Assembly: GCA_036158745.1 (NCBI GenBank)
Contig: JAYYFM010000001.1
Coordinates: forward strand, 1 to 27,693
Length of the DNA: 27,693 bases
DNA from: Thermoplasmatota archaeon
GTDB taxonomy: Archaea > Thermoplasmatota > Poseidoniia > Poseidoniales > Poseidoniaceae
Direction of reading: 5' to 3'
The position numbers and the translations under genes were made by a program. How positions within the stretch are numbered: the first letter of the stretch is position 1; the number at the start of each line of letters is the position of its first letter. The notes under the pieces are model-generated. The model ran no database searches, was not told the origin of the DNA, and saw only the letters and a program-made list of their open reading frames with translations. Below, piece by piece: positions 5,355-8,632 of this stretch.

Positions 5355-6428
5355 TCAATTCGAGTGGTCAAGCGCCATATCGTGCAAGGCGATGAATTCG
5401 CCATCAACTCGAGCAAGACGTAATTGAGAGGCACCATCGTAGTCCCATGGAAGACGAACGGAGGTCATTTGCCATGTATTTGGGTCTAGGAATTCGGCTG
5501 CAGAATCATCACGATTGAGAATATCCACGACCATGTGGTCGTTCATTTGCGACAATACTTTCACGCCATCAAGGTCTCTCCATGTTGCACCTGTGCGTTC
5601 TTGGCGAGAAATACGCTCCATAATGGCGCCATCCTTGCTCCAAGAACTCGGCCGCCACAAATCGCCTCGCCAACGAACAACGTCACCGAGGTCGTAACCG
5701 GGTTTTCGATAGAGAAGCGTCAGTCGTGTCACATCGACACCATCTTTTCGTCCCACCGTCGAATTCGTTTCTGTGACTTGCCCGCCCCAGTTCTCAATCA
5801 AATGGCGGCCCCATGCACGGGCAAGTCCTTTCGAACCCATGACAACATCGTACCCACCCGTTACTGGGCCTTCATTGGTGATGAAAAACATTGGATCATC
5901 GCTGAGTTGTTCGATAACATCGTCAAGACTCGCTCGAAGATTGTTGAGTTCGCTTTCTTCCAGTCTGCGACCGGTTGAGCGAAGTTGAACAGTCGCCTCG
6001 AAATAATTTCCAGCTCGCCGTGTGCACGTCAAACACACACCGTTTGAACGGCGGGCTCTCATGGTGTGCTCTTCAGTGTACAAGAGATCGTCGATGACGC
6101 CCTCTATCTGCATGTGGAGCAACGTGTGTCGATCTGAAACCGTCCGAGGTTCGAATCCCAAACCGATTTCTTCAGCTCGTTCGTGGAACGAAACGTTGCG
6201 CTGAATCAACTCGTCCCACAACGTATCCTCTGGGATGTTGACCCAACGGCCTTGAATATCGATCAGTCCACAGCGAGCACATTGCGTAAAATTCGTGTTC
6301 TCGGGGACAATAGCAAGTTTGGTTCGCTTGCGTGTGCATGCTTCACACATTTTGTCGGTGAACAGAGGTGGCTCGTTGCCGCACACGAGGCAAAAATCTC
6401 CACCTAGTCCACGACTCAATGAACTCAC
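5355..6428 (-). CDS. nmd3: NMD3 family ribosome biogenesis protein (archaeal)
   Basis: CLVC/CEAC and CARC/CLTC zinc-binding pairs, GNYFEATVQLR, GYDVVMGS, GRKDGVDVTRLTLLYR. The GTG start overlaps the upstream stop (GTGA). Confidence 0.88.
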   Translation of the reverse strand: MSSLSRGLGGDFCLVCGNEPPLFTDKMCEACTRKRTKLAIVPENTNFTQCARCGLIDIQGRWVNIPEDTLWDELIQRNVSFHERAEEIGLGFEPRTVSDRHTLLHMQIEGVIDDLLYTEEHTMRARRSNGVCLTCTRRAGNYFEATVQLRSTGRRLEESELNNLRASLDDVIEQLSDDPMFFITNEGPVTGGYDVVMGSKGLARAWGRHLIENWGGQVTETNSTVGRKDGVDVTRLTLLYRKPGYDLGDVVRWRGDLWRPSSWSKDGAIMERISRQERTGATWRDLDGVKVLSQMNDHMVVDILNRDDSAAEFLDPNTWQMTSVRLPWDYDGASQLRLARVDGEFIALHDMALDHSN

Positions 6429-6583
6429 TCCTGTTCATGGTCGGCCGTCTTGAAACTTCGTTCAACCGCTTCAATCCGCTTCTCAAGGTCGTTGCTACGT
6501 GCAAAAACTGTCCACGTCCAAAGGCCGATGGCAGCGAGCATGCCGAGATATGCCACAGCAAGATAGGTCATTCCTTCGTCCAT
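6425..6583 (-). CDS. ccmD: CcmD-like small bitopic membrane protein, 52 aa (missed by ORF track)
   Basis: My translation: MDEGMTYLAVAYLGMLAAIGLWTWTVFARSNDLEKRIEAVERSFKTADHEQE*. One TM with the YLxxAY pattern plus a charged helical tail. RBS GAGGTG 5 nt upstream; starts 2 nt after the ccmC stop; its TGA overlaps the nmd3 GTG. Confidence 0.75.
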   Translation of the reverse strand: MDEGMTYLAVAYLGMLAAIGLWTWTVFARSNDLEKRIEAVERSFKTADHEQE

Positions 6584-6585
6584 GT

Positions 6586-7284
6586 TTACACCTCATCCTT
6601 TGCTTCTTGAATCCTTTCCAATCGTTGCTCGAGCGATGTGATTCGCATGCTCATCAGAACATGACCGAAGATGAAAACCGTAAACGAAATCGCACCCAGC
6701 ATGAGGATGAGGAACATTTCCTCATTGAGGCTTCCACTTTCCCCGCCACCAATCACTGGACCAGGGTGACGAATTTGCCATAACCGCGTGGCAACGTACG
6801 TGACTGGAACGAGTATGAATCCAAACAGACCAAAGGTGGAAAAGGTATCTCTCGTTTCCACCCCATCGATTTGAGCTTGCCTACCCAAAACTAGGAACAT
6901 TGCAAGGAATGTGAGGAGTCCAAATGTATTCAATCGAACGTCTGTCCAATCCCAGGGGACACCCCACTCTGCAGAACCCCAGACCATACCGCTCCATACG
7001 GTCATCAAACCTGTAGCAAGTCCGGCTTGTGCACCTGCGACATGCATCTTCCAACCGAGGTCGGAACGTTTGAAAAACCACAATGCAGAACCTACGAAAA
7101 GGAATCCAAAAGCGATGAATGCAGACCATGCTGCGGGAACGTGCCAGTAGAAAATCCGTTGAGCTTCTGGTGATTCAAAAGCCTTGAGGGAAACACTCGG
7201 TGCTTTGAGAAAGGCAAGCCCGAGGGTCATGCCAATTCCGATGAATCCAAGCAAAAGAATCACCTCTGCCAATCGCTTGGTCAT
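6586..7284 (-). CDS. ccmC: Heme exporter / cytochrome c biogenesis protein CcmC
   Basis: RIFYWHVPAAW (His1), WWD-type motif WGSAEWGVPWDWTDVRL, RLWQIRHPGP (His2), six TMs. I moved the start to ATG 7284 (MTKRL); the track extension overlaps the upstream gene. Confidence 0.88.
   Translation of the reverse strand: MTKRLAEVILLLGFIGIGMTLGLAFLKAPSVSLKAFESPEAQRIFYWHVPAAWSAFIAFGFLFVGSALWFFKRSDLGWKMHVAGAQAGLATGLMTVWSGMVWGSAEWGVPWDWTDVRLNTFGLLTFLAMFLVLGRQAQIDGVETRDTFSTFGLFGFILVPVTYVATRLWQIRHPGPVIGGGESGSLNEEMFLILMLGAISFTVFIFGHVLMSMRITSLEQRLERIQEAKDEV
6589..6594 (-). promoter_or_regulatory. Ribosome-binding site for ccmD-like ORF
   Basis: Minus strand reads GAGGTG-TAAAC-ATG. Confidence 0.65.
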
Positions 7285-7322
7285 GTTTATTCCACCGAAC
7301 CTTTTGCTTTCAATAATTGCAT

Positions 7323-8555
7323 TTACAACAGGCCAGAATCGGTTATCCATTGAACAAGCAGGGCAAATGGTAGAATCAGAATCGGTGTCAGAATCCGGGT
7401 AAATGCAGCACGAGGTCGTGCAAGTCGAGATGTAGCGAGATCCATCCATCGCACCAAGAGCATGGTTGAGGTGGTCAGCAATCCGCCAATGGCAACGAGA
7501 GGCCATGAAACGTCAGCATCAAACCCTAATTGGGTCAACGCAGTCAATCCTGAACCAAGGATGAGACCGTGGATGTATGAGTTTGGAATACCTTGACGAT
7601 GGGCTTTCCACCAATCCAGTGCTCTGTGTTCATGCAACATTGAGACCATGTTGTCGCCAACGAGGCCAGCTGCGAAAGCGGCACTGAGGAACAATCCAGA
7701 TGCTTGCATTAAGGAGGAATCAACCGCTGAAGCATCGAAGAGTGCAAGGAGAATCCCAAGGGTGAGGAATCCGGCTATGCCATTGCTAGCGACAGTAGAC
7801 AACGTGCGTTGATTGAGCAAAAATCCAGTTCGGAACGCTGGGTTGTTTCTGTGTGATGATGCGTTCCTGTCGTCCTTTACTCCGTTCGATTCCACGAAAG
7901 CTTCGTTCGTTTCCATCGTATTCCCTGTGAGAAGATGTGTCGCACAAGCCGTGAAATCTGTGTGATGACTTGCAAGGACAATAGCGTTTCCTCGATTTCG
8001 AAGTTCATGCAAATCCTCGACCAGTAAGGTGCGTGATGCTGCATCAAGTCCTGCCGCTGGCTCATCCAACAACAAAATACGGGGTGTTTGACCTACAAAT
8101 CCAGGCAACATTCCGGCGAGCATGGCTACTTTGCGACGTTGGCCGCCTGACAAGTGCGCGATTAAATCGTGCTTTCGATGGGCCAGATTGTAGCGTTCGA
8201 GCCATCGATCGACGTCAAGACGTCCTCCTGCGAGGTCAAGGGCGTTGAGAAGATGTTCTTCGACACGTAGGCTTCCAACGCATCCATCGGATTGCAACGT
8301 TAATCCAAAGGCGGATTTGGGTCGTTTCGACCTCCCAGATGCATCGATGAGAATCTCTCCATTGTGGAGGACTTCTCCTACTTCGAGAGGTAAAAGACCG
8401 GCTGCAACCTCAATTATGGTCGACTTTCCTGCTCCGTTTTTGTCCTTTAAGAGGATGAGTTGTCCGCTTGTGACGTCAAGGCTCACATCACTGAGTACGA
8501 GTGATGAGCCACGGCGAACTGAAACGCCGTTCAGAGACAACAGCACTTGGCTCAT
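7323..8555 (-). CDS. ABC ATPase (CcmA-like) fused to a C-terminal ~6-TM permease domain (CcmB-like)
   Basis: Walker A variant DKNGAGKST, signature LSGGQ, Walker B ILLLDEP, H-loop ASHH. Then ~180 hydrophobic residues ending ILTPILILPFALL, which resembles the CcmB PLLxLP motif. Directly upstream of ccmC. I moved the start to ATG 8555 (MSQVLL). Confidence 0.65.
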   Translation of the reverse strand: MSQVLLSLNGVSVRRGSSLVLSDVSLDVTSGQLILLKDKNGAGKSTIIEVAAGLLPLEVGEVLHNGEILIDASGRSKRPKSAFGLTLQSDGCVGSLRVEEHLLNALDLAGGRLDVDRWLERYNLAHRKHDLIAHLSGGQRRKVAMLAGMLPGFVGQTPRILLLDEPAAGLDAASRTLLVEDLHELRNRGNAIVLASHHTDFTACATHLLTGNTMETNEAFVESNGVKDDRNASSHRNNPAFRTGFLLNQRTLSTVASNGIAGFLTLGILLALFDASAVDSSLMQASGLFLSAAFAAGLVGDNMVSMLHEHRALDWWKAHRQGIPNSYIHGLILGSGLTALTQLGFDADVSWPLVAIGGLLTTSTMLLVRWMDLATSRLARPRAAFTRILTPILILPFALLVQWITDSGLL

Positions 8556-8632
8556 GTACCAATCCAAAACACACACATGAATGAATGCTACGACAGGACA
8601 AGACCCATAGTCGAGCAAATGGTCGGAGATGC

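Follow-up and report, generated by a model that had tools for sequence, protein, structure and literature searches.

A fused ABC half-transporter, CcmC and a probable divergent CcmD form a candidate heme-handling module of cytochrome c maturation in Poseidoniales archaea

Introduction

On the minus strand of a 27,693-nucleotide (nt) stretch of DNA from a Thermoplasmatota archaeon of the order Poseidoniales (GenBank assembly GCA_036158745.1, contig JAYYFM010000001.1, positions 1 to 27,693; the whole stretch is referred to here as the window), the following genes lie head to tail, namely, I) an ABC transporter gene at 7323-8555, in which an ATPase is fused to a membrane domain; II) ccmC at 6586-7284; III) an open reading frame (ORF) of 52 amino acids (aa) at 6425-6583; IV) nmd3 at 5355-6419; and V) pgi, a phosphoglucose/phosphomannose isomerase gene that follows nmd3 in the same run. 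The Poseidoniales are the Marine Group II archaea, which are uncultured and among the most abundant planktonic archaea, and the source genome is a metagenome-assembled genome (MAG) that is 62% complete; the proteins most similar to those of the window carry the labels Candidatus Poseidoniales or Poseidoniaceae. This study addresses the first three of these genes, which probably encode the heme-handling module, i.e., step 1, of System I* cytochrome c maturation (Ccm) in this order.

CcmAB belongs to the type V exporter class and is found in (AB)2CD or (ABCD)2 assemblies (PMC10457321, PMC9616876), for which several Escherichia coli CcmABCD structures are available (7F02-7F04, 7VFJ, 7VFP, 8CE1, 8CE5, 8CE8; PMC9616876, PMC10457321). 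For archaea, ccmD has been stated to be universally absent from the genomes (Gupta 2022, PMC9084895, citing Allen 2006 and Kletzin 2015), and the same paper discusses a CcmD-independent release of holo-CcmE. Neither CcmD nor Marine Group II is mentioned in Kletzin 2015 (PMC4429474). Literature searches found no paper on a CcmA-CcmB fusion, on Ccm in Marine Group II, on TIGR04391, on a CXCH heme site or on choice-of-anchor proteins.

Results

A conserved gene order and a genuine gene fusion

The gene at 7323-8555 is a single ORF of 410 aa with no stop between the ABC ATPase and the hydrophobic C-terminal domain, and it directly precedes ccmC, i.e., it takes the place of ccmA and ccmB in the ccmA-B-C-D order. 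The arrangement rhomboid / fusion-ccmC-small ORF-nmd3-pgi is kept in all 32 Poseidoniales species loci that were fetched; fusion, ccmC and small ORF are tightly spaced in every one of them, with a gap of 2-9 nt between ccmC and the small ORF, and the run ccmC-small ORF-nmd3-pgi is present in both Poseidoniales families. An earlier reading of the window, made by a model from the letters and a list of ORFs (the sequence-only reading), had considered that a stop or frameshift might split the fusion, and a protein of the same length is found across independent assemblies. More than 200 protein clusters from such assemblies share the 410-aa length, which, together with its retention in the 32 species loci, shows that the fusion is not an assembly artefact. 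Frameshift or misassembly as its origin is ruled out, since hundreds of independent assemblies carry it. Public annotation names the protein merely 'ABC transporter ATP-binding protein'.

The N-terminal part of the chain (residues 1-215; 7911-8555, minus strand) is a nucleotide-binding domain, the CcmA equivalent, with matches to ABC_tran, to 8ce1_a and, below the cut-off, to TIGR01189. Residues 21-167 match Pfam ABC_tran (4e-17), and the catalytic motifs are intact, namely, Walker A (NGAGKST), the Q-loop, LSGGQ, Walker B (LLLDEP) and the His of the H-loop. The domain is 31% identical to the separate CcmA of a sister lineage, and in the predicted model numerous ABC ATPases match it, among them E. 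coli CcmA (8ce1_a; Z 20.2). A variable linker (residues 216-238; 7842-7910, minus strand), unconserved in the alignments, connects the ATPase to the membrane domain (residues 239-410 and the stop codon; 7323-7841, minus strand), which was delimited from the predicted helices and is a putative divergent CcmB that lacks transmembrane helix (TM) 6.

The fold of the membrane domain and its relation to CcmB

The fusion was modelled with AlphaFold2 (AF2) at a predicted local distance difference test score (pLDDT) of 88.9 and a predicted template modelling score of 0.85, using a 40-sequence alignment that included distant members; a model from 17 close homologues alone had a pLDDT of 49, and it was the distant members that raised it. 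The lowest pLDDT of the model, 62-76, falls in the linker. The membrane domain is modelled as an elbow helix, TM1, TM2, coupling helices and TM3-TM5, so that, of the ATPase with a fused six-helix domain proposed in the sequence-only reading, the fusion is borne out by one ORF in 32 loci and the sixth helix is not. Whole-chain alignments (residues 3-410, 360-381 residues aligned, Z 18-21) were obtained only to the type V half-transporters ABCH-9C, ABCG2, ABCG25 and ABCG1; in this whole-chain Foldseek / VIA-align output, ATPase matches crowd out any CcmB row. On these models, the fusion is confidently predicted to adopt an ABCG-like type V half-transporter fold, the class to which CcmAB belongs. 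With ABCG2 (7OJ8), ABCG1 (7OZ1), ABCG25 (8WAM) and ABCH-9C (9JU6) it shares a single-chain layout in which an N-terminal ATPase leads into an elbow helix and a compact membrane domain. Unlike the Poseidoniales protein, the ABCG/ABCH transporters are eukaryotic lipid or drug exporters with six TM helices plus re-entrant helices and no link to heme, and the sequence identity between the two groups is 15-18%.

Taken with its place at the head of a ccm gene run, this predicted fold leaves little doubt that the 410-aa protein performs the job of CcmA and CcmB together. The ancestry of the membrane domain is a separate question, on which a series of results weighs against CcmB. The CcmB model PF03379 found no match in the source genome, even at an E-value of 10, and thus none in the region 7323-~7880 in which an HMM (hidden Markov model) search for CcmB had been suggested; nor did it match any of 10 diverse homologues that are 30-41% identical to the window protein. 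Pfam and NCBIfam searches with the membrane domain and the 10 diverse homologues gave no membrane-family match, a PDB-sequence profile search with the membrane domain was empty, and hhalign comparisons of this domain with archaeal CcmB (alignments of 9 and 22 sequences, and sister-lineage CcmB) returned probabilities of 0.2-0.6%. The domain has five TM helices against six in CcmB. The ATPase, too, scores no better for CcmA than for other ABC families: it reaches 89.6 bits on the TIGR01189 ccmA model, below the cut-off of 131.6, and this is its third NCBIfam match, behind two unrelated ABC families.

Other comparisons point towards CcmB. The 100 clusters in the ESM Atlas nearest to residues 232-410 are mostly CcmB, with a top score of 0.90. 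At low stringency, an hhalign alignment that is not significant runs collinear with CcmB over 169 columns and ends where TM6 would begin, and it pairs the L-N-x-R-T elbow, a conserved Glu after TM2 and a Pro-rich L-T-P-I-L-I-L-P helix with their CcmB counterparts. The fusion chain ends after the helix that aligns with TM5 of CcmB, and the elbow and coupling helices are present. It is therefore considered probable that the fused membrane domain descends from CcmB by loss of TM6. Sequence homology to CcmB is not claimed, since no sequence test supports it, and membership of the CcmB family is not demonstrated. Of the CcmA-CcmB fusion put forward in the sequence-only reading, the single-chain transporter thus stands, on gene order and predicted type V fold, and homology to CcmB does not, as every sequence test for it was negative.

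The same negative results, the five rather than six helices, an ATPase that is not specifically CcmA-like, and the restriction of the family to one order would also fit a non-orthologous replacement, in which ccmAB was lost and its place beside ccmC was taken by an unrelated half-transporter of type V (ABC-2 or ABCG-like) that now does the Ccm ABC job. This is judged unlikely: the Atlas clusters nearest to the domain are overwhelmingly CcmB, the elbow motif, Glu and Pro-rich TM5 fall in line with CcmB along the collinear alignment, and the ccmA-B-C-D positional order is retained.

The distribution of the family is narrow. Only 37 representatives of the membrane domain were found among 1.84 billion proteins, and every full-length one (387-459 aa) is a fusion; for the two Poseidoniales families, the fused domain was found in 24 of 24 and in 11 of 16 genomes searched, and the rest of the class had it in none of 40 genomes. 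The PF03379 cut-off was not exceeded in any of 35 Poseidoniales genomes searched (a single weak match, E 8e-4), whereas 58 of 201 genomes of the phylum have a match above it. Separate ccmA and ccmB genes were present in all 20 canonical loci of the phylum that were fetched. Apparent CcmA-CcmB fusions elsewhere in the phylum were rejected: in high-GC genomes, the long frames that cover ccmB come from frame run-on, and the two genes are separate. In a sister lineage (L110:2751-4024, G056:C11), ccmA (205 aa) and ccmB (219 aa) are separate genes whose stop and start overlap; in locus L110, ccmC is not adjacent to this pair, and an msrB-like gene follows on the other strand.

A divergent CcmC with its heme ligands and WWD loop

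The ccmC gene (6586-7284, minus strand; 232 aa plus stop) scores 36.8 bits on PF01578, above the cut-off of 29.9, and 69.6 bits on TIGR01191, below the cut-off of 186; the low score on the latter marks the window protein as a divergent member. In the alignment to E. coli CcmC (7f02_C), H48 and H173 correspond to H60 and H184, and WGVPWDWTDVRL aligns to the WWD loop with a one-residue insertion, in agreement with the earlier recognition of both His residues and the WWD motif. All 12 orthologues compared keep H48, H173 and the WWD loop unchanged. The start was placed at the ATG at 7284; every one of the 32 loci has an ATG here, 44 codons ahead of the FYWHVP motif. If the ATG at 7350 were used instead, ccmC and the fusion would share 28 nt.

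A conserved single-pass protein at the ccmD position

The small ORF (6425-6583, minus strand) encodes a single-pass membrane protein of 52 aa. Its ATG lies 2 nt after the ccmC stop, and a Shine-Dalgarno-like GAGGTG, read directly in the last ccmC codons (6589-6594, minus strand), stands 5 nt before this ATG; 28 of the 32 loci have a GGTG here as well. An ORF of 49-63 aa with an ATG start is present in all 32, which settles the possibility, raised earlier, that it might not be conserved. Across 24 diverse homologues 16 positions are invariant, and the pairwise ratio of nonsynonymous to synonymous substitution rates (dN/dS) is 0.04-0.08 (about 0.06) in the frame of the ORF, compared with values above 1.4 in both other frames. 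The small ORF is a real gene under purifying selection. The sequence-only reading had described an unannotated ORF with a strong ribosome-binding site (RBS); ORF and RBS are upheld, and 'unannotated' is not accurate, for several public annotations call it as a hypothetical protein and others leave it uncalled.

The protein has an acidic N-terminus of 5 residues, a TM helix at residues 6-28 and then an Arg/Lys-rich helix; these charges indicate an N-out/C-in topology as in CcmD. Comparison with other archaea of the phylum is informative here. Where canonical ccmABC genes are present, a single-pass ORF of 40-59 aa overlaps the ccmC stop and scores 26-42 bits on TIGR04391 (cut-off 24), as in L062:620-778, L066:572-748, L070:2855-3016, L072:617-790 and L080-L094. 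The orthologous ORFs of the other Poseidoniales family reach 19-22 bits on this model and match the window ORF by tblastn (E 2e-7 and 2e-6). When the Poseidoniales small-ORF family was aligned by hhalign with the TIGR04391-type archaeal ORFs, a probability of 97.2% (E 3e-11) over 50 columns was obtained. CcmD_alt and CcmD are the sole named families among the 100 Atlas clusters nearest to the window protein. With CcmD_alt (TIGR04391 / PF20077) it shares a position directly after ccmC, a length of 40-60 aa, a Y/F-x-x-A-Y/F motif at the start of the TM helix and a charged helix next to it. Unlike the CcmD_alt models, the Poseidoniales proteins carry W-T-W-T-V and R-S-x-x-L motifs specific to the order, and the window protein scores nothing on either model.

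Binding to CcmC was examined by co-folding. The pair of CcmC and the small protein had an interaction prediction score from aligned errors (ipSAE) of 0.72, against 0.00 for the best of three controls; among solved complexes 58 of 80 attain the ipSAE mark used, and among mismatched pairs 2 of 110 do so, but this mark applies only approximately here, as own alignments were used. Predicted contacts of the small protein on CcmC involve TM1, the H48 loop, residues 90-105 (the start of WWD), and TM6 with the C-terminal helix. An invariant Tyr sits at the outer end of the helix of the small protein. E. coli CcmD binds CcmC only, reaching its C-terminal helix via R54, and its Tyr17 sits beside the WWD residue Met118 (PMC10457321, PMC9616876). 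The prediction supports binding of the small protein to CcmC.

Some observations count against an assignment to CcmD. In the search of 6425-6583 with CcmD-family models, PF04995, PF20077 and TIGR04391 all failed to match the window ORF, even at an E-value of 10, and a PDB profile search gave coiled-coil noise alone. The hhalign score may be inflated by composition, as can happen with single-pass helices, and the co-fold score may partly reflect the model's memory of solved CcmCD structures. It is nevertheless regarded as highly probable that the 52-aa protein is a divergent CcmD of the CcmD_alt type, and the earlier suggestion of a hidden CcmD that standard models miss is borne out by the negative curated models, the hhalign match to CcmD_alt ORFs and the co-fold. 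That it is instead a lineage-specific membrane peptide at the ccmD position, and not a CcmD homologue, is distinctly unlikely. Such a peptide would account for the failure of the curated models, for the absence of the N-terminal amphipathic helix of E. coli CcmD, and, given how prone single-pass proteins are to compositional bias, for part of the scores; it is harder to reconcile with an hhalign match over the full length, with the sister-family orthologues that link the window ORF to TIGR04391, with Atlas neighbours named only CcmD_alt and CcmD, and with a co-fold that passes its controls.

The presence of TIGR04391-positive ORFs after archaeal ccmC contradicts the published universal absence of ccmD from archaea. 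The CcmD_alt models are already in NCBIfam and Pfam, and the occurrence of such genes in some archaea is database knowledge, not a discovery of this study.

ccmE and ccmF elsewhere in the genome

No ccmE, ccmF or CxxCH protein was found in the window, as had been noted from the letters. In the source genome, the ccmE gene (G000:C156:2447-2839) scores above the PF03100 cut-off, and its product ends in CPSKY, which is the CxxxY motif found in System I*. The ccmF-type frame at G000:C31:2-2395 is truncated at the contig end and spans at least 798 codons, and Pfam recognises only its N-terminal Cytochrom_C_asm domain. At ~650 aa, E. coli CcmF is shorter than this frame. CcmE is above cut-off in 54 of 61 Poseidoniales genomes. 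Heme delivery to an acceptor other than CcmE, which had been proposed for the case that ccmE and ccmF are missing genome-wide, is ruled out by the two genes on contigs C156 and C31. With both present, the module is probably step 1 of a System I* pathway that is ordinary, though with its genes dispersed.

That the substrate of the fusion has nothing to do with heme, with CcmE loaded by CcmC and the small protein alone and released independently of ATP, is very improbable. CcmCD has been reported to load heme onto CcmE without CcmAB (PMC12077264), and the HMMs cannot assign the transporter; set against this are the invariant, tight adjacency in all 32 loci, the finding of no other CcmA/B candidate in the Poseidoniales genomes searched, and the need for CcmAB in holo-CcmE production in bacteria and Methanosarcina (PMC9084895).

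Candidate client proteins

PF00034 and PF13442 found no standard cytochrome c in 31 Poseidoniales genomes, with two marginal matches. In the 62%-complete source genome, all matches to a CxxCH scan were Fe-S, zinc-ribbon or thiol-oxidoreductase proteins or lay in non-coding frames. The genome-wide search proposed earlier thus yielded ccmE and ccmF and, within this incomplete genome, no standard CxxCH cytochrome. One marginal match (L058; G016:C95:2537-5764) is a large protein with a CIKCH site. The region downstream of it resembles planctomycete-type proteins, and it may stem from a contaminating bacterial contig in this MAG.

The other marginal match led to a family of secreted or anchored proteins whose N-terminal domain is NF041895 'choice-of-anchor V' (85-100 bits, cut-off 42). 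This domain is present in 3-10 copies in each of 61 Poseidoniales genomes. The source genome holds at least four (C77:4430-5605, C155:2254-2877, C165:661-1479, C82:1458-1901), and copies in relatives are at loci L120-L139 and L149-L160. In all 35 copies inspected, G-C-x(1-4)-C-H stands directly after the signal sequence, nearly always as C-x-C-H and rarely as CxxCH or Cx4CH; these rare copies aside, S-G-C-x-C-H is invariant at the N-terminus of the mature domain. Other archaeal families of the phylum have copies with G-C-x(1-4)-C-H as well. Heme c sites are marked by a variable Cys spacing and a His that immediately follows the second Cys. To our knowledge, known heme c Cys spacings are at least 2; Allen et al. 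2009 reportedly tested E. coli Ccm with Cys spacings of 2 to 6.

Among 201 genomes of the phylum, the choice-of-anchor V domain occurs in 70, CcmE in 64 and both in 52. Nearly all above-cut-off matches to the domain are in genomes with CcmE or CcmB, and many families lack both. As the genomes are related and hence not independent, this co-occurrence is suggestive only. It is a tentative possibility that the Poseidoniales System I serves choice-of-anchor V surface proteins and not ordinary CxxCH cytochromes.

Neighbouring genes and the junction with nmd3

The gene downstream of the small ORF, nmd3 (5355-6419, minus strand; Pfam NMD3, 8e-36), encodes a homologue of the ribosome 60S export/maturation factor and lies outside the Ccm machinery. 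The overlap of the small-ORF stop with an nmd3 start, described in the sequence-only reading, is literally present as GTGA; the real start is the conserved one 9 nt further on, a TTG (6419) in the window where most loci have ATG, and one clade has GGC or GGT in place of the upstream GTG. A 5-nt spacer separates the small-ORF stop from this TTG, and an AGGAG, read directly within the last small-ORF codons (6428-6432, minus strand), is 8 nt before it. The conserved E-Q-E or E-E at the end of the small protein is accounted for by this embedded AGGAG.

Among the ccm loci examined, nmd3 was near ccm genes in none outside the Poseidoniales. The coupling of the ccm unit to nmd3 that had been proposed is thus confined to this order, and the adjacency of nmd3 and pgi is read as order-specific packing in compact genomes, with no sign of a functional link. 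We know of no biochemical connection between nmd3 and Ccm. A functional link, e.g., co-regulation of ribosome maturation with respiratory-chain assembly, is the least probable of the alternatives weighed in this study: the 5-9 nt spacer and the RBS embedded in the small ORF are conserved in both Poseidoniales families, but among the ccm loci examined those of other orders lack a neighbouring nmd3, pgi is part of the same run, and these genomes of 1.3-2.2 Mb pack unrelated genes tightly.

On the other side of the module, the start codons of the fusion and of the rhomboid protease are divergent and 29 bp apart (8556-8584), and this spacing is identical in the 30 loci that hold both genes. With a divergent gap of 29 bp, promoters would overlap the neighbouring coding regions, or the transcripts would be leaderless. 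A promoter/terminator scan was uninformative, its consensus being bacterial and unsuited to archaea. Two public contigs, L007 and L013, carry the archaeal locus (77-92% protein identity) in records with bacterial labels (Rhodobiaceae and Salipiger bermudensis); they look like mis-binned or mislabelled MAG contigs.

Discussion

The module resembles E. coli CcmABCD in its A-B-C-D order, its intact ABC catalytic set, and a CcmC with two His residues and the WWD loop, and the (AB)2 stoichiometry of the bacterial complex fits a homodimeric half-transporter. Its small subunit is, like E. coli CcmD, a single-pass N-out/C-in protein, with predicted contacts at the C-terminal helix of CcmC and the start of the WWD motif. 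Unlike in E. coli, A and B are one polypeptide in the Poseidoniales, with a five-helix membrane domain that is invisible to PF03379; the WWD loop of CcmC has an insertion of one residue; the CcmD-type protein, at 52 aa, lacks an N-terminal amphipathic helix and is missed by PF04995; and ccmE and ccmF are unlinked, with no ccmG, ccmH or ccmI nearby. In several respects the Poseidoniales system is closer to System I* of Methanosarcina acetivorans (CcmABCEF), with which it shares a CxxxY-type CcmE (CPSKY here), dispersed ccm genes and no CcmH or CcmI seen. It differs from System I*, for which separate CcmA and CcmB are published, in the A-B fusion and in the CcmD-type gene next to ccmC. The variant archaeal CcmABCD with a single-chain transporter that the sequence-only reading had envisaged agrees with the conserved order, the predicted type V fold, the lack of a separate CcmB in the Poseidoniales genomes searched, the selection on the small ORF, its CcmD_alt match and the co-fold. 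It would be a new System I variant, with a fused CcmAB half-transporter, a five-helix domain that the models do not see, and a divergent CcmD.

By analogy with the E. coli and Methanosarcina systems, from which the whole biochemical sequence is taken, the module may act as follows. The 410-aa half-transporter (ATPase, linker, membrane domain) would homodimerise into an (AB)2 core corresponding to that of E. coli CcmA and CcmB; we infer this dimeric assembly. CcmC would hold heme b at a site on the periplasmic side, formed by its two His residues and the Trp-rich loop, and the 52-aa protein would sit on CcmC as CcmD does, with its N-terminus outside and its C-terminal helix along the cytoplasmic end helix of CcmC. 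CcmE, a chaperone of the CxxxY type, would receive the heme; holo-CcmE would be freed when the fusion hydrolyses ATP, and CcmF would then attach the heme to client proteins. For the membrane-domain ancestry and for all of the protein contacts, likewise, the statements made here are what we infer.

A single-chain A-B protein is what a dimer of (AB)2 architecture allows, and a natural CcmA-CcmB fusion would be independent genetic support for the (AB)2 core seen by cryo-electron microscopy. A minimal membrane subunit of five TM helices would be useful for asking what CcmB does, i.e., whether it is a floppase or a release motor. The premise that CcmD is universally absent from archaea needs revisiting as well, with a CcmD-type gene after ccmC across a whole order and TIGR04391-positive ORFs in other lineages of the phylum.

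For the Poseidoniales themselves, a conserved and complete maturation pathway without a recognised cytochrome c points to unrecognised heme proteins, for which the CxCH surface proteins are candidates. If this tentative assignment were true, natural attachment of heme c at CxCH, where only one residue separates the cysteines, would be new, the divergence of the fused CcmAB and of CcmD could belong to that client specialisation, and heme proteins would be exposed on the cells of archaea that are abundant in the ocean.

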